DNA of 64,000 nt from an uncultured Candidatus Saccharibacteria bacterium (lineage in GTDB: Bacteria; Patescibacteriota; Saccharimonadia; Saccharimonadales; CAYVSP01), in assembly GCA_964584265.1 (NCBI GenBank), contig CAZOZI010000004.1, forward strand, positions 1,877-65,876. The letters are read 5' to 3'. Positions 8,592 through 61,942 of this stretch are shown here, one piece after another. Under the pieces are notes generated by a model. It was not told where the DNA came from and made no database searches. It saw only the letters and a program-made list of their open reading frames with translations. The translations under genes and the position numbers were made by a program. Within the stretch, counting starts at the first letter, position 1. Each line of letters begins with the position of its first letter.

Positions 8592-9515
8592 GTGATTACA
8601 CTCACTGGGAGTAATAGTTTTGCTTTGAGACGTGAGCTCAATGGGCTAGTTGATGATTTTGTGCAAAAAAACGGTGATATTGCAATTGAAAGGCTTGATG
8701 GGGAAGAATCTGAGTACGCCCGAATTACCGAAGCACTGCAAAGCCTGCCATTTTTAGCGTCTAAGAAACTAGTCGTTCTACGTTCACCAGGAGCCAATAA
8801 GCAATTTGCTGAAAAGTTTGAGAACATAGTACCGACAATATCCGAAACAACAGATGTAATTATCGTTGAGCCAAAGCTTGATAAGCGTACGCAGTACTAC
8901 AAAACGTTGAAAGCTAAGACCGATTTCAAAGAATTTCGTGAGCTTGACCAGCGGCAATTAGCTAACTGGTTGGTAGACGCGGCCAAAAGTAAAAAAGGAA
9001 GCTTAAGTTTCGGCGATGCTTTATATATTGTTGAGCGAGTAGGATCAGACCAGCAATTTCTATATAACGAACTGCAGAAACTACTCGATTATGATTTAAA
9101 AGTTTCGCGTTCGACGATAGATCTATTAACCGAGCCATCACCGCAAAGTACCATTTTTGAACTGCTCGATGCTGCTTTTGCTGGTAAAACTAAGCGCGCA
9201 ATTTCACTCTATGAAGAACAGCGCAAGCAAAAAGTCGAACCTTTAGCAATTATTGCCATGCTTGCCTGGCAGCTACAAATAATGGCTCTGATTAAAGCGG
9301 CAGGAGATAGGACGGCTGAACAAATTGCTAAAGAGGCAAAAATCAATCCATTTGTGGTACGAAAGAATCAACCGTTAGTCAAACATATGACACTTAGTGA
9401 GCTTGAAAAACTCACTGCGCGCGTGTTGGACATTGATATAAAGCTTAAAACCCAGAGCATTGATGCTGATGATGCGCTGCAGCATTTGCTATTAACAATT
9501 ACTCAAACGGAGTAG
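8592..9515 (+). CDS. holA: DNA polymerase III subunit delta
   Basis: 307 aa with the typical HolA N-terminal layout (ITLTGSNSFALRRELNGLVDDF) and length. GTG start. Confidence 0.75.
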   Translation: MITLTGSNSFALRRELNGLVDDFVQKNGDIAIERLDGEESEYARITEALQSLPFLASKKLVVLRSPGANKQFAEKFENIVPTISETTDVIIVEPKLDKRTQYYKTLKAKTDFKEFRELDQRQLANWLVDAAKSKKGSLSFGDALYIVERVGSDQQFLYNELQKLLDYDLKVSRSTIDLLTEPSPQSTIFELLDAAFAGKTKRAISLYEEQRKQKVEPLAIIAMLAWQLQIMALIKAAGDRTAEQIAKEAKINPFVVRKNQPLVKHMTLSELEKLTARVLDIDIKLKTQSIDADDALQHLLLTITQTE

Positions 9516-9655
9516 TTCTTTTCCAAAGAACACAAATGCTATGTTCCATTTTTGTGTCGACAAAAACGGAACCCAAAAAACGACAGGCAGCTGCCAAACA
9601 TGATTGCCGGTCTACCCAGACTTCAGCCGTGCGCTAAAGGACTCCTTTTAGTCGG
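9513..9655 (+). repeat. composite 3'-flank element, left modules (after holA)
   Basis: Module order: TAG-GTTCTTT-tcc-AAAGAAC hairpin; hairpin GTTCC-A-TTTTTG-tgtcga-CAAAAA-C-GGAAC; box AAAACGACAGGCAGC; box AGCCGTGCGCTAAAGGACTCCTTTTAGTCGG. Collinear with 31352..31489. Confidence 0.65.
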
Positions 9656-9820
9656 CTTTCGACCTTTATATTCAGAATGGCCTAGAGCTATCTTTAGCGC
9701 AACGATTCGGCTTCAGGCTGAAGCCCAGCATTAGTTTGGCAGAGCCTGAGGGTCAGAAATCTCCAGCCCGGTAAATGCTCATGTTTGCATCCGTGGATTA
9801 TTAGTAGATAATTATGATTC

Positions 9821-10342
9821 ATGGCTATTTATTGTACAACTGAGGAAGCTAGAGAATATATTAGCCACGAGCTTCCAGTTGGCCTAGAACTACCACGGAA
9901 TACAAACTTTAACACTGTAAAAAATCACTGCGCAACCGCAGTAATTTTTGCCGCGCTGGGTGAACCAGAACAAACACATAATCTTAGCCAACTTTATAGT
10001 GCATTTGCGATCAGAAGTCCGGGCTGGGCTGATGTAGAGTTTACAAAAAATGATTCTAAACGAATACGCGAGAACATAAGACGACGCAGGGATAGCAGCG
10101 AACAAGATGCAAATCTACGATTAGCTGACGGGCGCGAGGAAAATCAGATTGAGGCGTTCCGATTTATCCTAGCAAATGCGTGGAAGCTCGAAGATGATTT
10201 AGTTGATGTTTATGCAGTTGACGCTCAGGGCACGATAGCCAAGGTAACGACTATGGGTGGCTGGGTTGATCTGGAAGATTTTAATTGGCATTGGATAGCT
10301 GAATCAATTGAATCGGGTATTAAGCGAGAATTTAATTCATAA
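9821..10342 (+). CDS. hypothetical protein carried between the two halves of a composite repeat element
   Basis: 173-aa acidic ORF with no recognisable motif. Flanked by repeat modules 9513..9655 and 10415..10602. Confidence 0.6.
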   Translation: MAIYCTTEEAREYISHELPVGLELPRNTNFNTVKNHCATAVIFAALGEPEQTHNLSQLYSAFAIRSPGWADVEFTKNDSKRIRENIRRRRDSSEQDANLRLADGREENQIEAFRFILANAWKLEDDLVDVYAVDAQGTIAKVTTMGGWVDLEDFNWHWIAESIESGIKREFNS

Positions 10343-10414
10343 AGACTTAATAATAAAGTTCTAGTATCTGTTCCGTAAAATTTCAGGTCCTGCAGATTCT
10401 TTTTTGGGTCTGGG

Positions 10415-10602
10415 CATCTGAGAGAACCTGACTATATATTGTACAAAACAGGCGTTCTTGGGTGCGAGAGTTGTTTGACGAGTAAAAGATCCAGTGAATC
10501 TTTTACGAGGAGTTCTCGAGCAAGCCTGTTTTGAACTAATAAATAGATCAAGTGAACGAAGCAGCCCAGCAGTTTTGAGACACTTTTGCTGTCAAAAGTG
10601 TC
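10415..10602 (+). repeat. composite element, right module (structured, RNA-like)
   Basis: Aligns along its length with 31601..31785. Closing helix AACAGGC/GCCTGTT. Internal hairpin TAAAAGAT-CCAGTGA-ATCTTTTA. Terminal hairpin GACACTTTTG-ctgt-CAAAAGTGTC. Confidence 0.65.
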
Positions 10603-10637
10603 AAAGTATTGCTTCTTGGAAAGAAGAAAAGAATAAG

Positions 10638-11012
10638 TTATTTCTTTGTAGTTTTCTTGGGGGCTTTTTTGACCGCTGATTTAGCGGTTGTCCGCTGGCT
10701 AGCGGATTTAGGTACCGTTTTCTTGACAGTCTTGGTAGCAGTTTTCTGGATTTTAGTACCAGCGGCTTTAGCAGCTGCAGCTAGTTGGCGTTGCTTGCGG
10801 GCGACTTTATTCTTGTGCATGATGCCTTTTTTGCCAGCTAAGCCGAGTGCGCTTTGTGCAGCCGCTTGGGCTTCACCCACTTTTTTACCATCAGTTACAG
10901 AAGTCTGAAACGTTTTGAGCGAACTTTTAAGAACACGCTTGGTCTTTAGATTACGTGCTGCCGCCTTTCGAGCGGTACGAACGCGTTTTTTAGCTGATTT
11001 GATAATAGGCAT
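10638..11012 (-). CDS. rpsT: 30S ribosomal protein S20 with Lys-rich C-terminal extension
   Basis: MPIIKSAKKRVRTARKAAARN N-terminus and IMHKNKVARKQRQL core. About 35 extra K/T/A-rich residues at the C-terminus. Confidence 0.9.
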   Translation of the reverse strand: MPIIKSAKKRVRTARKAAARNLKTKRVLKSSLKTFQTSVTDGKKVGEAQAAAQSALGLAGKKGIMHKNKVARKQRQLAAAAKAAGTKIQKTATKTVKKTVPKSASQRTTAKSAVKKAPKKTTKK

Positions 11013-14726: not shown

Positions 14727-15146
14727 ATGAACGCAGAAACACAAACAAACCGTGCAGCTACATCCCCTACTGTTTTGAGTCATAGTGAAGCCGATAGAAT
14801 ACTTGGTGAAGTTGAAGATACTAATAAAGCGCTGAAAAACGCTAAGATGCAAGTCTTAGGAGAAACAGCTGCTACATCTGGCATTTTAAGCAAGGATGAA
14901 GCTGAGAGAATACTTGGCAAGGTTGAAGATACTAATAAAACGTTCAAAGATTCTAGAACTCAAATTTTAGAAGAAATTCCTAATCCAGATACAGCTGGCT
15001 TGCACAAGGTAGCAAAACCTGACCATCAAATTGCAGCTAATGCTCAACCAGCCGAATTAGCTAACCCAGATATGCTAGTAGTTGATCCAGTCGATACATA
15101 CATTCGTCACGGCAATGACCGCGAACCCGTAGGTGCAGTAAAATAA
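14727..15146 (+). CDS. hypothetical protein with internal tandem repeat
   Basis: Two ~38-aa repeats (SEADRILGEVEDTNKALKNAKMQVLGE / DEAERILGKVEDTNKTFKDSRTQILEE). TGCTATAAT -10 box 14714..14719 lies 7 nt before the ATG. Confidence 0.6.
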   Translation: MNAETQTNRAATSPTVLSHSEADRILGEVEDTNKALKNAKMQVLGETAATSGILSKDEAERILGKVEDTNKTFKDSRTQILEEIPNPDTAGLHKVAKPDHQIAANAQPAELANPDMLVVDPVDTYIRHGNDREPVGAVK

Positions 15147-23461: not shown

Positions 23462-24562
23462 GTGAATGTACTAAAAAAACATCCATTTAGTAAAAACACA
23501 CGACTATTTACGGCACTAAGCGCAACCATAGCCATTTTGGTCATAGGTGGTGCAGCTTTGGTTGGTATTAACCGGCTACAAGGCTCACGAGCCTTTACAG
23601 GCCATCACGCCAGGTGCGATCAGAATCAAGCCTATATCAATGGCCAACCAGTGAGTTCAGTCCAAACCGGCCAAACCTTTCAAGCAACTGTTAAATTCTA
23701 CAATGACGGAACTACTTCTTATACCAAAGCCTATGCTTGGTACATGGCTGAGTATAACGGTAGTAATTATTGGAATGCGTCTGGAAGAGACGTTAATGGT
23801 CAGACAGACCCAGGTGGAACCGCTGTATTTAATCTAACACTGCATGCCCCATCATCTGCCGGTACCTATCCTCTTAACTGGACTTTGGGCATCGCATCTT
23901 CACCACCGCAACAAGTTGCTAACCCATGTATTTCACAGCTCCAAGTCAATGCTCCGCAGCCCCCGCCAACTCCAGCGCCAAACGCACCGGGTATTTCAGT
24001 AACAGGGGTAAGCGCGAGTTCAATTAGTTTGGGATGGGGTGCCTCGAACAATACAAGTAGCTACTCAATCTTTCGAGACAACAGCCAGATTGCTAATATT
24101 AACGCTACATCTTATATAAACAGCGGTCTTGGCTGCAATACGTCGCACAGTTACTTTATAGTCGCCAATGGTCCTGGCGGCGCAACTAGGTCAAATACAG
24201 TTTATAAGACCACTAATAGCTGTTCCTCACCTAGCACTCCGGGAGGGACTAACCCACAAGGCGGCGTAAATATACAGCCAATACAGGGGTCTAGCAATGA
24301 TTCAGCTGCCAACCAGAGCTCACAGGAAAGTTTTCTTACAAATGGAGATACGAATGGATCTACGGACTCTAGTAACAATTCGCCATCTTTTGCTCAAGCA
24401 AAGCACAAGCCATTATGGGAAACACTTCTGAGGGTGTTCCTCGTACTTGTCATACTGGCAGGAGTTGGTTTTGGCGGACTGCTACTACTAGGTAAATATT
24501 TAACGGGTCGTAAGCAGAAAGAAGTTGCCGACGATTTGTGGCGCAAATCCGAAGGTCTATAG
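23462..24562 (+). CDS. surface protein with Ig-like and fibronectin type III domains, TM helices at both ends
   Basis: N-terminal TM, FN3-like segment (PGISVTGVSASSISLGWGASNNTSSYSIF), Ser/Asn-rich linker, C-terminal TM. GTG start. Confidence 0.65.
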   Translation: MNVLKKHPFSKNTRLFTALSATIAILVIGGAALVGINRLQGSRAFTGHHARCDQNQAYINGQPVSSVQTGQTFQATVKFYNDGTTSYTKAYAWYMAEYNGSNYWNASGRDVNGQTDPGGTAVFNLTLHAPSSAGTYPLNWTLGIASSPPQQVANPCISQLQVNAPQPPPTPAPNAPGISVTGVSASSISLGWGASNNTSSYSIFRDNSQIANINATSYINSGLGCNTSHSYFIVANGPGGATRSNTVYKTTNSCSSPSTPGGTNPQGGVNIQPIQGSSNDSAANQSSQESFLTNGDTNGSTDSSNNSPSFAQAKHKPLWETLLRVFLVLVILAGVGFGGLLLLGKYLTGRKQKEVADDLWRKSEGL

Positions 24563-24700
24563 TTCTTTTCCAAAGAACCAAATATTTTACTACTTTTTAC
24601 CGAAAAAGTAGCGCAAAAGCTCTCCGGCGACTTCCAGTTCTTTATGACTTTAGTTGTCAAGCGCCACGGGCGCGTTAGCCCCGTAGAGCGCCTTTGAGTT
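24560..24700. repeat. third, partial copy of the composite element
   Basis: Same TAGTTCTTTTCCAAAGAAC 19-mer on the stop codon. Hairpin CTACTTTTT-accg-AAAAAGTAG (24590..24611). Inverted fragment GCGCCCGTGG..GCTTGAC of the right module at about 24655..24676. Confidence 0.5.
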
Positions 24701-24820
24701 TCAGAGTATGAACGTCTATTGACCAACAGGGGTAAGTAAGCTATACTTGTGCGGTCATTAGTACTTCAGGTTACTGCATCTTTTGAGCGAGTAGCCTTTA
24801 ACCAAGAGAAGGACACTATT

Positions 24821-30390: not shown

Positions 30391-31329
30391 ATGCAAAATG
30401 TAAATGCGTGGCTATGGCCACGCCGTTACTACGTATATTCCAAAAAGATGCCTCGTATTCAGCCGGGGCCGTTTGTAGTTGCAGTAATGGGTGGTGTGAT
30501 TATCCTAAGTTTGGGTATGTTAGTTCGTGCCCGAGTAATGCCACAGGCTTTGTCGCCTGCTCAGGCAAAATTAGTTGCACTACCAACTATTCCTGAAACC
30601 GAAAAAACGTCAGCACAAACACCTCCTACGATTGAGCCGGTTTCTAGTTATATTGGCCTTCAGCAACCTGTTAATAATTGGATTAATGCTCATAAAAGTG
30701 TGCAATGGGGAGTTGACTTGCAAGATGTTGCTAATCCGATCAATCAGTTGAGCATTAATGCCGGCGAAAGTTTTGAGGGTGCAAGCATATATAAATTGTT
30801 TTTGACGATTCCACTTGCTGCCAGACTGCCTTTTAGTTCTTGGCGTTCTCAATACGTTTGGAGTGAGCAAGGGCGTCGTACCTATGCAGATTGCGTGCAA
30901 GCTATGCTGTCTGTTTCAGATAACCCTTGTGGAGTTGCAGTCGGTAGTTATTTGGGCTGGGCTCGGGTTAGCCAAAGTCTTCATAGTCAAGGTTTCGGTA
31001 ACACATCGCTGCTCAATAGCCCCATTACTACCACGGCAGCAGATACGGCTAGTTATCTGGTAGGCCTTCAGCAAGGCAAATGGTTTGATGCTCAAACACG
31101 GACATTTATCCTTGCTAGTTTAGCTCAACAGCGTTTTCGATCAGGCATTCCCCAAGGTTGCAGCGGCTGCACCGTCTTAAATAAAACTGGCCAGCTTGAT
31201 GGCTATACTCACGACGCAGCCATAATCCAAAAAGGTACCCACGTCTATGTACTCGCAATTTTTTCTAAAGGTGGCAGTTATGAACAGATTGCGCAGCTAA
31301 GCCAACTTATTAATTCGCAAATACATTAA
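30391..31329 (+). CDS. membrane-anchored serine hydrolase, class A beta-lactamase/PBP-like
   Basis: SxxK (ASIYK), SDN (SVSDNP) and KTG (NKTGQ) motifs in the right order. N-terminal TM. Start 30391 or ATG 30448. Confidence 0.7.
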   Translation: MQNVNAWLWPRRYYVYSKKMPRIQPGPFVVAVMGGVIILSLGMLVRARVMPQALSPAQAKLVALPTIPETEKTSAQTPPTIEPVSSYIGLQQPVNNWINAHKSVQWGVDLQDVANPINQLSINAGESFEGASIYKLFLTIPLAARLPFSSWRSQYVWSEQGRRTYADCVQAMLSVSDNPCGVAVGSYLGWARVSQSLHSQGFGNTSLLNSPITTTAADTASYLVGLQQGKWFDAQTRTFILASLAQQRFRSGIPQGCSGCTVLNKTGQLDGYTHDAAIIQKGTHVYVLAIFSKGGSYEQIAQLSQLINSQIH

Positions 31330-31351
31330 ATATTTAGCTACAGAGTTCCGT

Positions 31352-31489
31352 AGCGTTCTTCGAACGCTTCATGCAACTACCTTTCTTTGGTTGCAAAGAA
31401 AGGTAGTAAAGAAACAACAGGCGACGAGAATACACAACTGTTCGCAGATACCAGTTACGGCCGTGTGCCAAAGGACTCCCTTCGGTCGG
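31352..31489 (+). repeat. composite 3'-flank element, left modules (ORF-less copy)
   Basis: AGCGTTC-ttc-GAACGCT hairpin (31352..31368), 13-bp hairpin CTACCTTTCTTTG-gttg-CAAAGAAAGGTAG (31377..31406), box AAACAACAGGCGAC, box GGCCGTGTGCCAAAGGACTCCCTTCGGTCGG. Confidence 0.65.
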
Positions 31490-31600
31490 TCTGGCTCTTT
31501 TTTCATGAATCGAGCCAGACTGTCTTTGTCCCAATGACTCGGCCTAACCTGATTGTTCACAATCGGTTTTCTCGAGCCTGGCTAAATCAGGCTCTAGGAA

Positions 31601-31785
31601 CATCTGACTAGATGCTGTAAGAAATAGGCGCCCGTGGGTGCGAGGACTGCTTGACGAGATTTTTAGCCAGTGGCTAAAAATTGAGGAGTTCCGCAGCAAG
31701 CCTGTTTATTACAGCAGATAGATCAAATGTGACGAATGCCTGTCGTTTTTTGGGTTCTGTTTTTGTCGACACAAAAATGGAACAT
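31601..31785 (+). repeat. composite element, right module (ORF-less copy)
   Basis: Closing helix AATAGGC/GCCTGTT and internal hairpin ATTTTTAG-CCAGTGG-CTAAAAAT. Ends with an inverted copy (31738..31785) of the 9541..9589 hairpin block. Confidence 0.65.
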
Positions 31786-31808
31786 GTTTGGTTATTTGAA
31801 AAATAACA

Positions 31809-32921
31809 CTATACGTTGAACCTAAACTCCACCACATCATTGGGCTGCATGATATAGGTTTTGCCTTCGGTGCGGACCTTGCCGACAGCTCTAGCAGCAG
31901 CCAACGAACCATTCGTAACTAAATCGTTATAATCAATTATTTCAGCCGCAATAAAGCCACGTTCAAAATCGCCGTGTATAACACCAGCCGCCTCGGGCGC
32001 AGTTGCGCCCTTGGTAATAGTCCAAGCGCGCACTTCTTTTTCACCAGCGGTAAGATAACTTTGTAGTTCCAACATGTCATAGGCAGCGTGGATTAGTTGG
32101 ATCAACCCGGATTCCTTTTGGCCGTAGCTATCAAGTAGTTCTTGGCGATCAATTTCATCCAGACCTCTTAATTCGCTTTCTAATTTGGCGCAGACAAAAA
32201 GAGCTTTTGCAGGCTCAACATGCTTGTGCAAGGATTCCTTGCTAGCTTCGTCGCTAAGAGCCTTTTCATCTACGTTAAAAAGATAAATGATTGGTTTAGC
32301 TGTCAGCAACTGAAGACTGCGAAAATATTCACCTTCGCCACTTTGCATTCTAATATTCTCGAGAATATTAGAATGATACAATGGCTTATTTGATTGAAGG
32401 AGTTGATGTATTTCTTTTAGAAGAGTGAGAGATGGCTTAAGCTTGGGCTCAGCTTTGGCCTCTTTTTGAAGTACTAGTAGTCGTTTCTCAACAGTTTGTA
32501 GATCGGCTAGCACCAACTCGGTGTTGATTACTTCGATGTCTTTTTTTGGGTCGTTCCGCTGGCCAGCGGATTCATCTACATGCTGTACGTTTGGATCCTT
32601 AAAGGCGCGCACTACCTGTACGATGGCATTGCAGCTGCGGATATGGCTTAAGAATTGGTTGCCCAACCCTTCACCCTGGCTTGCACCAGCTACAAGTCCA
32701 GCAATATCCACAAATGTAACCGTGGCAGGCTTAATGGGTACATTGCCATACATTTCACTAAGTTTTTGCAGACGTTCATCTGGAATGGGGACGATACCGG
32801 TATTAGGTTCAATGGTGGCGAAAGGATAATTGGCTGCCAAAATATTATTATCGGTCAGCGCATTGAATAAGGTGGACTTACCGACGTTCGGCAGCCCGAC
32901 AATCCCAATTGATAAAGACAT
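31809..32921 (-). CDS. ychF: redox-regulated ATPase YchF
   Basis: GIVGLPNVGKSTLFNALT P-loop, TGS C-terminal domain. TGTTACAAT -10 lies 6 nt before the ATG. Confidence 0.93.
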   Translation of the reverse strand: MSLSIGIVGLPNVGKSTLFNALTDNNILAANYPFATIEPNTGIVPIPDERLQKLSEMYGNVPIKPATVTFVDIAGLVAGASQGEGLGNQFLSHIRSCNAIVQVVRAFKDPNVQHVDESAGQRNDPKKDIEVINTELVLADLQTVEKRLLVLQKEAKAEPKLKPSLTLLKEIHQLLQSNKPLYHSNILENIRMQSGEGEYFRSLQLLTAKPIIYLFNVDEKALSDEASKESLHKHVEPAKALFVCAKLESELRGLDEIDRQELLDSYGQKESGLIQLIHAAYDMLELQSYLTAGEKEVRAWTITKGATAPEAAGVIHGDFERGFIAAEIIDYNDLVTNGSLAAARAVGKVRTEGKTYIMQPNDVVEFRFNV

Positions 32922-55870: not shown

Positions 55871-55876
55871 GTTGCT

Positions 55877-55905
55877 ATTTTAGCACAAAAGGTATAAAAA
55901 GTCAA
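55877..55905 (-). promoter_or_regulatory. promoter of array unit 5 (type 2 module)
   Basis: TTGACT-17-TAAAAT with TGC upstream of the -10. 6 nt to the ATG. Confidence 0.7.
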
Positions 55906-55929
55906 TATTCATGCTTCTTTAACATTGCC

Positions 55930-55963
55930 GGTGTGCCTGCCTGCCGTAGGTAGGGAACTATTT
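55930..55963. repeat. array junction motif (unit 4/5 junction)
   Basis: Plus-strand reading GGTGTGCCTGCCTGCCGTAGGTAGGGAACTATTT. Confidence 0.8.
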
Positions 55964-55999
55964 ATAACTAGCAAACAAAAACCCAGTAACCAATAGGCT

Positions 56000-56323
56000 C
56001 TATCGAATAGGGTGAAAAGTCCGTTTGTAAACTTTGGGTTCTCTGCCCGCCATTGCTCTTGCCGTGTTTCTAACTGCTCTGGTACCAGTGTCAAACGAAC
56101 CGTCGTCGTGCGTAAAAGTAACTCCTAAACGATCTTCAGGGCGTGTGGGTAGGGGCAGATCTCTGCCCATAGCAGCTCTTAATATTTGTCTGGCAGCTTG
56201 GCGGCCCATTTCTTGGCCCCCATTCTCATGCGTAGATATGAGACCTAACTTTTTTTCTGAATGTAAGGCATAAGCTTCTGCGGGTGGTTGGGTTGGGACT
56301 AATGCTTCTTGATGTTCTGCCAT
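56000..56323 (-). CDS. hypothetical protein, array unit 4
   Basis: 107 aa from MAEHQEA. AGGAAA Shine-Dalgarno. The ORF-track 5' extension overlaps promoter 56343..56371. Confidence 0.6.
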   Translation of the reverse strand: MAEHQEALVPTQPPAEAYALHSEKKLGLISTHENGGQEMGRQAARQILRAAMGRDLPLPTRPEDRLGVTFTHDDGSFDTGTRAVRNTARAMAGREPKVYKRTFHPIR

Positions 56324-56342
56324 GATAATTTCCTGAGTATTT

Positions 56343-56371
56343 ATTCTAGCATAAACATGATAGAAAGTCAA
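56343..56371 (-). promoter_or_regulatory. promoter of array unit 4 (type 2 module)
   Basis: TTGACT-17-TAGAAT. Here a 19-nt leader with AGGAAA precedes the ATG. Confidence 0.7.
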
Positions 56372-56372
56372 C

Positions 56373-56386
56373 TGGCGGACCTTAAC
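56373..56386 (-). repeat. tRNA-Asp 3'-end-like sequence, junction 3/4
   Basis: Minus strand GTTAAGGTCCGCCA followed by GTTGAC (-35). Compare tRNA-Asp GTCGGGCCCGCCA followed by GTTGAT. Confidence 0.55.
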
Positions 56387-56392
56387 AGAAGA

Positions 56393-56408
56393 GGTGTGGA
56401 ATTATTTT
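56393..56408. repeat. array junction motif, short form (unit 3/4 junction)
   Basis: GGTGTGGAATTATTTT is the same flanks with the central 19 nt (GCCTGCCTGCCGTAGGTAG) precisely absent. Confidence 0.7.
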
Positions 56409-56412
56409 AGGC

Positions 56413-57372
56413 TTATGCAGCCTGTTCCCATAAACGTTCAGCAACAATGACATCAATAGCTTGATCCCACATATCATATGCTAGTTGGCTACCAGGGCAT
56501 CCTATAGTTGGCTCGTCCACTTTAATATCACCTAATCGGGTTCCAACAGGATAAACAACTATATGGTCACCTTGCATGTCTCGTTCTAAGCCCTCCAGTC
56601 GATTTGCAACATGCACATCTGCCCTGAGCACAAAGTTAGTTGTAGGCTGGGACCATTCAACAGCTTCTTGACCTGAAAGGTTAGTTCCTAACTGGGTATA
56701 GCTCTCAATTATGTCAGACGGCATGAAGCTATTACGGTCTAAGACAAAATCGCTTCCTCGGAGCCCATCGCCAAGACAAAAAGTAAACGCTTTTGCATAC
56801 TGTTGGGGGTGATGCAGTGGTTCTTGAAGCAAGGTATGAGCACTGTTTCTTGCCAAAGTTTCAGTATCTACTGATGCACCATTGGCTCTCGCCATTGCTG
56901 GCATTCGTCTGAGAATATTAACAATTGTTGCAGGCGCAAATTGAGCACCTGGAAATACAATTTCTCTTAGTCTCTCGGTTCCAGTGCTTTGGGACACTAA
57001 TGGTTTGAGCGGTATATGGCCTAGGTTTTGTAGTGCCCCATGATAGGGACATCCAGTTTCTGGAGGAATTACTGCTTCAAATGCTTTTTGGGCTGTTGAA
57101 GAAAGTAGTCTTTCTAGAGGCACCCAATCTTTGTTCATAGGCTGGCTAAAACCCGTGAATGGTTCGCCATTTGGTTGGACAAGGCCATATGGCGGAGCAG
57201 TACTACGAAAATTGGCATAAACTTCACGCACATTGTCCACTAAGATATGGGCATCGGCGTAGAAGTGTGGCTTTGCTTCAGTAAGTGAAGCACTAGGGTC
57301 AAGGGAACTAGGTACACCTGCCTTCCTTTGGCGTAGCTGTTCTCCGTAATCTCGGCGGGCCTCACTAGACAT
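56413..57372 (-). CDS. hypothetical protein, array unit 3
   Basis: 319-aa ORF with no motif recognised. Promoter TTGCTT-17-TATTAT ends 7 nt before the ATG. Confidence 0.65.
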   Translation of the reverse strand: MSSEARRDYGEQLRQRKAGVPSSLDPSASLTEAKPHFYADAHILVDNVREVYANFRSTAPPYGLVQPNGEPFTGFSQPMNKDWVPLERLLSSTAQKAFEAVIPPETGCPYHGALQNLGHIPLKPLVSQSTGTERLREIVFPGAQFAPATIVNILRRMPAMARANGASVDTETLARNSAHTLLQEPLHHPQQYAKAFTFCLGDGLRGSDFVLDRNSFMPSDIIESYTQLGTNLSGQEAVEWSQPTTNFVLRADVHVANRLEGLERDMQGDHIVVYPVGTRLGDIKVDEPTIGCPGSQLAYDMWDQAIDVIVAERLWEQAA

Positions 57373-57379
57373 AAAACAA

Positions 57380-57408
57380 ATAATACCACAAAAGTAGTAT
57401 TAAAGCAA
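57380..57408 (-). promoter_or_regulatory. promoter of array unit 3 (type 1 module)
   Basis: TTGCTT-17-TATTAT, 7 nt to the ATG. About 90 percent identical by eye to the unit 1 promoter, including ATACTAC-N4-GTGGTAT. Confidence 0.7.
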
Positions 57409-57411
57409 CAC

Positions 57412-57426
57412 TGGCGGACCCTGACG
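57412..57426 (-). repeat. tRNA-Asp 3'-end-like sequence, junction 2/3
   Basis: Minus strand CGTCAGGGTCCGCCA. Matches 12 of 13 tRNA 3'-end positions with one 1-nt indel. Confidence 0.55.
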
Positions 57427-57431
57427 TTGCA

Positions 57432-57466
57432 GGTGTGCCTGCCTGCCGTAAGTAGGGAACTATTTT
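57432..57466. repeat. array junction motif (unit 2/3 junction)
   Basis: GGTGTGCCTGCCTGCCGTAAGTAGGGAACTATTTT. Confidence 0.8.
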
Positions 57467-57499
57467 GTGTTTTCAGAAGGTTTTGCTAAAAAAAAGCTA

Positions 57500-58120
57500 C
57501 TATACTTGAGCATCCAAGGCTTGGAGAGCATCCTCTACGGGTTTAAGCTGAATCCACCTATGCGCCCTATCTTCATTAGCTCCGTCTGCTATATAAGAGG
57601 GATCTGTAGAGTCAACAGATATAGAAAAATTGTATCGAAAGCCATCTTCTGGTAAATGTACGCCTTCGTCCCAATGATCCAAAGCCTCGACATTATTTGC
57701 TAGTACTGCGTTTATAAAACCACCAGAATAAAAACCGACACGTCTGGCTGGATAGTCTGGAAATTCGGGATCGAATGGATTAGGCGAATCAAATTTATTT
57801 AAAAGAGTTATAGTTAGGCTTGGTTTGTCGTCCCAAGCAGAGGATCCCCCCTCATTCAAAAAAGGCATAAGTTTAAGCCATACTCTAGTGGTACCCCTTG
57901 GCATATCTACATCATCCACTAAAGTTTTTGCCATTGGTTTACCACGGTCATCGTGCTGAGTATCGGCATCGGGGTGCTTGTTTAAAACATGAGTGGCTAG
58001 TCGAATGATAGAGTCGAACTGCTTTTTTTCTTCAGGATGCAAATTTTCTTTAGAAACAAGGGCATCATCGAGAACTTCGCCTGTTGGATCGTGGTTAGGG
58101 CCGGAGGCAGAGAGAGGCAT
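57500..58120 (-). CDS. hypothetical protein, array unit 2
   Basis: 206-aa acidic ORF. Promoter TTGACT-17-TACAAT ends 6 nt before the ATG. Confidence 0.65.
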   Translation of the reverse strand: MPLSASGPNHDPTGEVLDDALVSKENLHPEEKKQFDSIIRLATHVLNKHPDADTQHDDRGKPMAKTLVDDVDMPRGTTRVWLKLMPFLNEGGSSAWDDKPSLTITLLNKFDSPNPFDPEFPDYPARRVGFYSGGFINAVLANNVEALDHWDEGVHLPEDGFRYNFSISVDSTDPSYIADGANEDRAHRWIQLKPVEDALQALDAQV

Positions 58121-58126
58121 TAGTTT

Positions 58127-58155
58127 ATTGTAGCATAAACAGTATGAAAAGTCAA
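58127..58155 (-). promoter_or_regulatory. promoter of array unit 2 (type 2 module)
   Basis: TTGACT-17-TACAAT with TGC upstream of the -10. 6 nt to the ATG. Confidence 0.7.
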
Positions 58156-58156
58156 T

Positions 58157-58171
58157 TGGTGGGCCTTGACG
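58157..58171 (-). repeat. tRNA-Asp 3'-end-like sequence, junction 1/2
   Basis: Minus strand CGTCAAGGCCCACCA followed by ATTGAC (-35). Confidence 0.5.
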
Positions 58172-58176
58172 TTAGA

Positions 58177-58211
58177 GGTGTGCCTGCCTGCCGTAGGTAG
58201 GGAATTATTTT
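58177..58211. repeat. array junction motif (unit 1/2 junction)
   Basis: GGTGTGCCTGCCTGCCGTAGGTAGGGAATTATTTT. Its 3' part supplies the last codons and TAA stop of unit 1. Confidence 0.8.
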
Positions 58212-58636
58212 CTTAATTCAGGTACGACTAACGCACCGTTGTCCATAGGAATACTGTAACGATTAATCTGAGGAACGCTTAAGGATGCGGCCGTATGGAA
58301 TTCATCAGGATAAAGACGAACCCATGTAAAATCTCCTCGAGGTCTAAAAGCCCTTGCTGTAGCTACGCCGCCGACCTTAAATAGTATTCTTAACTTACCA
58401 AGCTCTAAAGATGAGCCAACGACACGAAACTCAGGGTCTGTTCTATATACTTCAGATGGTAACAAACCCCGCATGAAGCCGTTAAGTTCGTCTGCAGTAT
58501 ATAGGGGGGTTGCTGGATAACTGTGGACTTCATAACCAACCACGTCTCCATCTTCATGATGATCACGAACAGCAGCAACTACCAGTTCAGGGTTTGCTTG
58601 TAATGTGTCAACTACATCTCTTGGAAAATTAGCCAT
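58205..58636 (-). CDS. hypothetical protein, array unit 1
   Basis: 143-aa ORF. Promoter TTGATT-17-TATTAT starts 1 nt after the tRNA-Asp CCA end and ends 7 nt before the ATG. Confidence 0.65.
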   Translation of the reverse strand: MANFPRDVVDTLQANPELVVAAVRDHHEDGDVVGYEVHSYPATPLYTADELNGFMRGLLPSEVYRTDPEFRVVGSSLELGKLRILFKVGGVATARAFRPRGDFTWVRLYPDEFHTAASLSVPQINRYSIPMDNGALVVPELRK

Positions 58637-61856: not shown

Positions 61857-61942
61857 GTTAACTCGAGTAATATAGTGCAAACGAGCAAGAAAGTCAACAA
61901 TATGACATAGCATAAGCGTCTTAGAGTGCTACAATACTATTC

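Follow-up and report, generated by a model that had tools for sequence, protein, structure and literature searches.

We analyzed a structured intergenic element that occurs in two copies, named L1 (left) and R3 (right), in a 64,000-nt stretch of contig CAZOZI010000004.1 from an uncultured Candidatus Saccharibacteria bacterium; this whole stretch is referred to as the window. The YchF protein encoded in the window was assigned to Saccharimonadales (Saccharibacteria), and its nearest public relative is 83% identical. Both copies form a rod of covarying helices with a conserved core, and homologues were found in Saccharibacteria genomes and in metagenomes. We put the probability at roughly 0.5 that L1 and R3 belong, as paralogues, to a previously undescribed structured non-coding RNA (ncRNA) family from a clade of Saccharimonadales (Saccharibacteria, Candidate Phyla Radiation (CPR)).

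The L1 and R3 sequences quoted in an earlier sequence-only reading of the window were found as written and in place. Sensitive pairwise comparison aligned positions 10417-10639 with 31593-31817 over ~225 nt at 63% identity. The conserved blocks noted by that reading exceeded chance, since GGGTGCGAG-N(5-12)-TTGACGAG occurred exactly twice in the window and in none of 100 shuffles. As it had described, every pair of the 8-bp apical stem differs between the two copies while both stems pair perfectly (Table 1), and a C-G pair of the closing helix is changed to U-G. The element is larger than the interval 10415-10602 first proposed for it and comprises a rod at 10410-10569 and tail hairpins at 10579-10602 and 10612-10626.

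To collect homologues, species-representative genomes were scanned with a 19-base pattern from the 3' half of the element, and metagenomes were scanned with a pattern from the 5' half. The genome scan gave 24 loci, 16 of which, from 12 Saccharibacteria assemblies, were true; the metagenome scan gave 57 loci, nearly all true. A covariance model (R1) built from 16 trimmed sequences returned 59 + strand matches of 72-161 bits from Saccharibacteria genomes and from soil, peat, and groundwater metagenomes. It added diverged copies beside known ones (L015, L013, and L084) and detected only L1 and R3 within the window. The carrier lineages have a G+C content of 43-64%, and one to four copies were seen per genome in 8-kb slices. 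Two scans of IMG/VR gave seven pattern matches, none of which fits the model, and a viral origin was not supported.

Rfam 15 (4227 models) was searched for known RNA families. Only five tRNAs reached the gathering threshold on the window. The region 10300-10700 gave no match at E up to 10, 31300-31830 gave chance-level matches only (14-17 bits, none over the rod), and 12 homologous loci gave nothing over the element. Thus neither the window copies nor the 12 homologues gave a hit even with E-values of up to 5-10 allowed, in agreement with the sequence-only reading, which could match the element to no known RNA family. No tRNA or tmRNA was present at the L1 or R3 locus, and no description of the element was found in the searchable literature on structured RNAs and repeats of Saccharibacteria or the CPR.

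Fold, folded strand, and conserved core

Each copy forms a rod of ~158 nt with seven helices, built from a base helix, four stacked helices, an internal region of conserved sequence, and the apical hairpin. The middle helix holds a conserved tandem G.A/A.G motif (UAGAUG/CAGAUA), and apart from a 5-nt bulge and an 11/5-nt internal loop the centre of the rod is largely helical. Covariation was measured on the model alignment of 58 distinct sequences, with 500 shuffles and slid partners as controls. Standard pairs were found in 93.5% of cells, compared to 78.1% in the shuffles (0/500 reached the observed value) and 34-50% with slid partners. Changes on both sides were found in 35 of the 51 pairs, a value that none of the 500 shuffles reached. 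These included all 11 pairs of the apical helix, all six of the base helix (CUGGGC, UCAGGC, CCAGAC, UCGGAC, and others), and 12 of the 17 pairs of the long middle helix. The second candidate helix of the sequence-only reading is weak and was supported in part only. Both-side changes were limited to 2 of its 11 pairs, and its outer three pairs were unpaired in 14-30 of the 58 sequences because two sequence types (UCG and CGC) use registers one base apart. The selection on an RNA or single-stranded DNA fold suggested by that reading was thus borne out by strong covariation once homologues were added.

Compensatory change was also observed in place. At the locus of a gene encoding a 964-aa protein, the orthologous copies L010 and L052 are both kept, with the base helix UCGGGC/GUCCGA in one and UGCGGC/GCCGCA in the other, and their outer helices also differ by compensatory changes.

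The wobble pairs indicate which strand folds. In the family alignment, G-U/U-G cells outnumbered A-C/C-A cells by 319 to 73 (118 to 21 without the weak helix); fitting the alignment to a + strand model could inflate this bias, but not by this much. In the first tail hairpin (hp1), where the search did not favor wobble pairs, the counts were eight G-U and one A-C. The hp1 of a further rod in the window, which lies on the minus strand (the left B rod; hp1 at 9543-9572), has an A-C mismatch in the + sense, that of holA, and a G-U pair on the minus strand. Therefore, the strand of L1 and R3 that folds is the + strand, antisense to rpsT and ychF. Of the paired cells, ~11% are conserved G-U positions, a typical share in RNA helices. 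The fold energy of L1 on the + strand had z = -3.6 relative to shuffles, and that of R3 had z = -5.97 (-77.2 kcal/mol, compared to -57.4 on the minus strand).

The 5' and 3' scan patterns share no positions, so each set of copies tests the other half of the element. GAGGAGTTC was present in 36 of the 40 copies found with the 5' pattern only, and TGACGA and GTGCGAG were present in 14 and 13, respectively, of the 18 copies found with the 3' pattern only. The core blocks GAGGAGUUC, UGACGA, and GUGCGAG are thus conserved under independent ascertainment. The conserved bases are located in asymmetric internal loops and the 5-nt bulge and are not mirror images of one another. A diverged variant of the rod type represented by L1 and R3, which we call C (L013:561-709; 41.7 bits), stands head-to-head with a canonical copy; it retains GCGAGAGCUGUUUGA and GAGUUCUCGAGC and lacks the GACGAG bulge and GAGGAG.

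The tip of the rod is variable. Among the 58 copies, 49 versions of the apical hairpin were found. The loop, for which the sequence-only reading had claimed constancy as CCAGTG, is only semi-conserved across the family (roughly YYRGKGR). At the gnd locus of two lineages, the rods are ~95% identical except for a wholly different apical hairpin. In another orthologous pair (L076:58-215 and L035:746-904), the apical loop alone is flipped (CAGCT-GGG-AGCTG and CAGCT-CCC-AGCTG), and the loop of L022:5919-6077 is CCACTGG instead of the CCAGTGG of other copies; such changes are the signature of template switching in a palindrome. One locus also bears an interior seen at a different locus of another contig. 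The hairpin swap, the loop flip, and the transferred interior indicate block-wise replacement of the tip, through recombination among copies or template switching at the palindrome, in place of gradual paired substitution.

In most copies, the rod is followed after 2-4 nt by a run of 3-6 U, then hp1, GUUUGG, and a second small hairpin (hp2). The U-run is found at this position in every tailed copy and on the + strand only. The terminal hairpin, taken by the sequence-only reading to be unrelated in the two copies, is a homologous module (CTTTTG-loop-CAAAAG) with covarying flanks. It corresponds to hp1, NNNCUUUUG-loop-CAAAAGNNN, which starts 9-13 nt past the rod in all tailed copies. One metagenome group contained at least five loci with ~100% identical tails. 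About 16 copies are tail-less and without a U-run; their rod is extended by a covarying helix of 12-13 bp, closed by the conserved ends GC-GA-GCCC (5') and GGGC-GA-GC (3') with tandem G.A. The flanks GCGAG...CGAG of this form were considered as a target-site duplication and rejected, as they pair as GC, tandem G.A, and GCCC and extend the rod. The pyrimidine run of the linker repeats the pyrimidine strand of hp1, matching both its length and its interrupting C (TTTCTTT with CTTTCTT), as in 10570-10602 and 31744-31783 of the window and in L006, L070, and L053. Over 53 tails the correlation was about r = 0.75, a statistic that ignores relatedness. The run might instead pair with the hp1 A-strand, or a U.A-U triplex might form.

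The window loci and genomic setting

The features of the window are listed in Table 1. L1 lies between an orphan open reading frame (ORF) and the convergent rpsT gene. R3 lies between a beta-lactamase-like gene (ORF 30391-31329, + strand) and the convergent ychF gene (ORF 31809-32921, minus strand), and its tail ends 1 nt before the ychF stop codon. The R3 hp1 was scored terminator-like on the + strand.

Table 1. Positions of the rods, their tails, and associated features in the window
Feature	Position	Strand	Details
L1 rod	10410..10569	+	base helix CTGGGC/GCCCAG, seven helices up to the apical hairpin; model R1 153.7 bits, E = 1e-39
L1 apical hairpin (hypervariable tip)	10483..10505	+	TAAAAGAT-CCAGTGA-ATCTTTTA, read directly
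L1 linker with U-run, and hp1	10570..10602	+	linker with U-run, CAGTTTTGA; hp1 GACACTTTTG-CTGT-CAAAAGTGTC at 10579-10602
L1 hp2	10612..10626	+	CTTCTT-GGA-AAGAAG; 11 nt from the stop codon of convergent rpsT
rpsT ORF	10638-11012	-	convergent to L1
R3 rod	31587..31743	+	base helix CAGGC/GCCTG; model R1 152.2 bits, E = 3e-39
R3 apical hairpin	31659..31681	+	ATTTTTAG-CCAGTGG-CTAAAAAT
R3 tail	31744..31807	+	U-run TCGTTTTTTGG; hp1 31754-31783; GTTTGG; hp2 31791-31807
Right B rod (second rod type)	31353..31581	-	head-to-head with R3; hp1 31376-31407, hp2 31353-31367
Left B rod	9516..9748	-	tail 9516-9604 begins directly after the holA stop codon
Orphan ORF, 173 aa	9821..10342	+	between the left B rod and L1
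Solo tail or remnant	24563..24640	-	hp2, hp1, and linker GAGAGCTTTTGCG; directly after the stop of + strand gene 23462-24562

At each window locus, a minus-strand B rod and a + strand C rod (L1 or R3) stand head-to-head, with the tails outward. The 5' ends of the B rod and R3 lie 6 nt from each other at the right locus, and the left-locus rods have the orphan ORF between them. Folded as the minus strand, both B rods show a CCAGGC/GCCTG base helix and, after the rod, a U-rich run and two hairpins. The tail of the right B rod adjoins the stop of the beta-lactamase-like gene; model R1 gave no match to this rod. The left B rod (9546-9748) matched the right one (31380-31580) in direct orientation at 62% identity in pairwise comparison, and its tail (9515-9604) is 82% identical, in inverted orientation, to the R3 tail (31722-31807). 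We considered whether the whole 480-nt spacer between ychF and the beta-lactamase-like gene (fold z = -8.8) is one large RNA into which the ORF was inserted in the left copy. This reading was rejected because the 5' half of the spacer forms a rod in its own right, which lies on the opposite strand and has a separate tail; relatives carrying a C rod alone also speak against it. On the minus strand of 24563-24750 no convincing rod was found (fold z = -1.35), and this region was dropped as a full element and treated as a solo tail.

The orphan ORF had no Pfam family and no Y1 transposase domain, and its sole match among 5.8 billion proteins was itself; it was excluded as a transposase or conserved partner protein on these grounds. 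In 9784-9823, a -10-like GATAAT stands 9 nt before its start, with TTTGCA 17 nt upstream of GATAAT. If the ORF is real, its translation may start on a leaderless mRNA that extends into L1. The layout of the left locus recurs in L021:540-1540, where a different minus-strand rod with a similar tail, an ORF, and a + strand C rod follow one another; the ORF encodes an unrelated small membrane protein on the + strand, and the locus lies upstream of rpsT, not downstream.

Across the family, the downstream gene was convergent in 30 loci and co-directional in 12, and the upstream gene was divergent in 29 of 51 loci, the other 22 being co-directional. In tailed copies the tail, and in tail-less copies the outer helix, ends a few bases from the stop codon of the convergent gene, the rod-to-stop distance being 57-96 nt in the former and 6-28 nt in the latter. 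The neighbors are housekeeping genes (rpsT, ychF, nusA, ileS, clpC-like Clp ATPase, gyrA, gyrB, tsf, gnd, and rarA), and the same ones recur across lineages: gnd, the 964-aa gene, gyrA/gyrB, rpsT, ychF, and rarA. Clustering of 266 neighboring ORFs within 4 kb of the 58 copies gave housekeeping families only, with no recurrent transposase-like family and no recurrent neighbor gene beyond housekeeping synteny. In a relative with 75% YchF identity (L003), a C rod lies between ychF and the lactamase gene in the opposite orientation, and the orientations in L010 and L013 are likewise opposite at the 964-aa gene locus. Head-to-head doublets were found in three further places. Copies within a genome are sometimes mutual closest relatives (L013/L022, 92%; L003/L016, 80%). 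No target-site duplication was found in the flanks of the 58 copies or of eight near-identical paralogues, only a frequent T or GGGT 5' of the rod.

About a dozen copies at unrelated loci (L079, L037, L038/L048, L060, L040, L004/L064, L062, and L071) have the palindrome AATACTTAACAAGTTAAGTATT 15-40 nt upstream, a candidate bidirectional terminator (with A- and U-tracts) or operator. Elsewhere in the window, three to four copies of a direct repeat of ~30-90 nt (families D1, D3, and D6) lie among the tRNA genes at 55876-58221 and 61868-61898, reading TATTNTAGCATAAACA..AGAAAGTCAAC, then GGTGTGCCTGCCTGCCGTAGGTAGGGAAC. A coding region contains, at 14773-14976, a 93-nt tandem-like direct repeat (family D2; 74% identity, spacing 111 nt).

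Proposed function and competing explanations

We infer transcription of the element, the ends of its transcript, and a binding partner. The RNA would be read from the + strand of the window and fold into the ~158-nt rod, and the U-run with the two small hairpins would serve as its 3' end or as a terminator. The conserved asymmetric internal loops and bulge (GNCCUUGGGUG, UGACGA, GAGGAGUUC, and AGCAAG) would offer a surface binding a protein or another RNA, and in the helices pairing would be the sole requirement. The apical hairpin would act as a spacer, swapped wholesale between copies via recombination or palindrome template switching. We prefer a functional RNA over selfish DNA because of the strand-specific fold, the wobble positions, the asymmetric core, the low observed copy number, the stable loci, and the in-place compensation. 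As the upstream gene is divergent in 29 of 51 loci, a + strand transcript there would need its own start.

Several observations weigh against a functional RNA. A sigma-70 scan upstream of the copies found no hexamer pair at a fixed distance, and the 5' ends in head-to-head pairs are only 6-33 nt apart, leaving no room for two promoters. At some loci the rod begins 4-22 nt after a co-directional gene, which makes co-transcription necessary for at least those copies. With A/U-rich stems and a U-run offset from the stem, the tail hairpins depart from the canonical form of intrinsic terminators. In eight near-identical paralogues, homology extends from 4 nt before the rod to right after hp2. The junction between ychF and the beta-lactamase-like gene is empty in the two closest relatives and holds an element of opposite orientation in a third.

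We ranked structured ncRNA first, followed by REPIN- or MITE-like DNA (MITE, miniature inverted-repeat transposable element), a terminator or insulator, and finally a 3' untranslated region (UTR) read from the minus strand. The second of these and the main rival, a non-autonomous mobile DNA unit of ~245 bp that folds as single-stranded DNA and whose fold is needed by a mobilizing enzyme and not as RNA, is unlikely in our judgement. The element shows repeat-like traits: sharp homology boundaries, with unrelated flanks among near-identical copies; no conserved promoter; inverted head-to-head doublets; both orientations at one junction (the window and L003 for ychF and the beta-lactamase-like gene, L010 and L013 for the 964-aa gene); empty sites in the closest relatives; and intergenic positions with a preference for convergent gene 3' ends. 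Moreover, inverted rods flank an unrelated small ORF in two genomes, copies within a genome can be closest relatives, and compensatory changes on both hairpin sides are reported to be common in REPINs (PMC3116915). Such a unit would move or be copied as DNA, possibly via a single-stranded top-strand hairpin, as IS200/IS605 and REP-RAYT do. Against this, neither the 266 neighboring ORFs nor the rod-flanked window ORF provides a transposase, no target-site duplication is visible, and the combination of variable rod ends and a conserved asymmetric centre is the reverse of that in terminus-bound elements; the base helix covaries rather than being conserved in sequence, unlike transposase-bound termini. 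The tail-less form has no hairpins to act as an end but persists, with compensatory change, at orthologous loci. The low observed copy number, the ~11% conserved G-U cells, and the lack of a model match in IMG/VR also argue against mobile DNA. A related and quite speculative idea, to which we give little credence, is a self-dispersing structured CPR element copied via its own RNA, as in short interspersed nuclear elements (SINEs), or via single-stranded DNA, with the apical hairpin as a specificity module, an address or identity tag read by a partner protein, and not a neutral spacer. Self-dispersal would account for the exact coincidence of the homology limits with the folded unit and for the lack of an accompanying promoter, and the duplicated pyrimidine run beside hp1 may then add a 3'-end triplex or switch.

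It is improbable that the element acts in cis only, as a terminator or insulator in which the rod, U-run, and two hairpins form a reinforced stop for + strand transcription, be it read-through or spurious, before it enters the convergent gene in antisense. The tail touches the stop codon of the convergent gene in most loci at the distances given above, the U-runs after the rod are on the + strand only, the R3 hp1 is terminator-like on that strand, head-to-head pairs between convergent genes would block traffic both ways, and no promoter would be needed. However, this role does not need 158 nt or loops conserved across lineages of 43-64% G+C, the tail-less form has no U-run, 12 of 42 copies precede a co-directional gene, and the hairpin stems are A/U-rich with an offset U-run. 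The minus-strand option raised in the sequence-only reading, a 3' UTR structure of rpsT, ychF, and other convergent genes, is very improbable. A tail lies 0-11 nt past the stop codon of each of four genes (holA, rpsT, ychF, and one ending at 24562), and the minus strand also folds better than shuffles (z = -4.6 to -5.0). The wobble pairs, however, work on the + strand only, antisense to both genes: read on the minus strand, 319 G-U cells become A-C mismatches and only 73 change in the opposite direction, with the same bias in hp1. The R3 fold is 20 kcal/mol weaker on the minus strand, a convergent gene is missing at 12 copies, and a co-directional gene precedes 22.

Comparison with known systems

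A REPIN, made of two inverted REP units around a variable spacer, has highly conserved ends and requires a RAYT (Y1/HUH transposase) gene, which the repeats typically flank. The present element resembles REPIN/REP sequences (including bacterial interspersed mosaic elements, BIMEs) associated with RAYT in being an extragenic hairpin repeat, often after gene ends and in either orientation, with inverted doublets, long vertical persistence, and compensatory hairpin changes. It differs in being two to three times longer with few copies seen per genome, in its variable termini and conserved asymmetric centre, and in orthologous copies that compensate in place; no RAYT was found within 4 kb of the 58 copies. 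Bacterial MITEs such as Correia/NEMIS, ERIC, BOX, and RUP are likewise 100-250 bp long, intergenic, sharply bounded, modular (boxA-B-C of BOX), and rod-shaped when transcribed. In contrast to them, the present element has neither terminal inverted repeats of fixed sequence nor target-site duplication, shows a strand-specific wobble bias, and is conserved deeply across lineages rather than nearly identical within a genome (L1 and R3, ~63%).

Among RNAs, sibling small RNAs, 6S RNA, and Y RNA share a length of 160-200 nt, paired 5' and 3' ends, conserved internal loops, and one to few paralogues with the element. These RNAs act via protein binding and not base pairing. The present rod differs from 6S RNA and Y RNA in having no large central bubble, Ro-binding helix, Rfam match, or conserved promoter, and in its hypervariable, swappable tip. 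6S RNA itself was rejected, as it is a rod of ~185 nt with a large bubble, whereas here helices make up most of the centre, interrupted by a 5-nt bulge and an 11/5-nt loop, and no Rfam 6S match was obtained. UUGACGA on the 5' side and GAG on the 3' side of the apical hairpin resemble the hammerhead core CUGANGA-stem II-GAAA; however, two of the invariant positions are changed (U in place of C3, G in place of A14), the flanks pair mutually into a two-way instead of a three-way junction, and there is no cleavage-site strand. With no Rfam hammerhead match in addition, this ribozyme was rejected. Signal recognition particle (SRP) RNA and RNase P RNA were rejected on sequence or architecture.

Integron attC sites and guide RNAs of mobile nucleases were also considered. 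The L1 closing helix AACAGGC...GCCTGTT has the reverse order of the core sites in attC, whose consensus we take to be R''(RYYYAAC) ... R'(GTTRRRY). The helix is not conserved in sequence in the family, and the neighbors are dispersed housekeeping genes and not a cassette array; attC was therefore rejected. The omega RNA of TnpB/IscB, which is located at an IS200/IS605 end and adjoins or overlaps a tnpB or iscB gene or its remnant, was rejected as well, given the neighbors rpsT, ychF, nusA, ileS, clpC-like, gyrA, tsf, and gnd and the absence of a match to Rfam HEARO.

CPR genomes, including those of Saccharibacteria, are tiny and tightly packed, and to our knowledge almost nothing is known about their ncRNAs. 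Here, units of ~250 nt fill whole intergenic regions beside core genes (rpsT, ychF, nusA, gyrA, tsf, and ileS). Their compensatory upkeep across lineages of 43-64% G+C is costly for a 1-Mb genome and implies use. With a working covariance model and 59 examples, soil and peat metatranscriptomes can be checked for the expression, strand, and ends of the element. The element is a new family within known kinds, namely structured small RNAs and hairpin-forming intergenic repeats. What sets it apart from these is an unusual pairing of an RNA-like core selected in place with cassette-like tip replacement, repeat-like dispersal, and head-to-head doublets.

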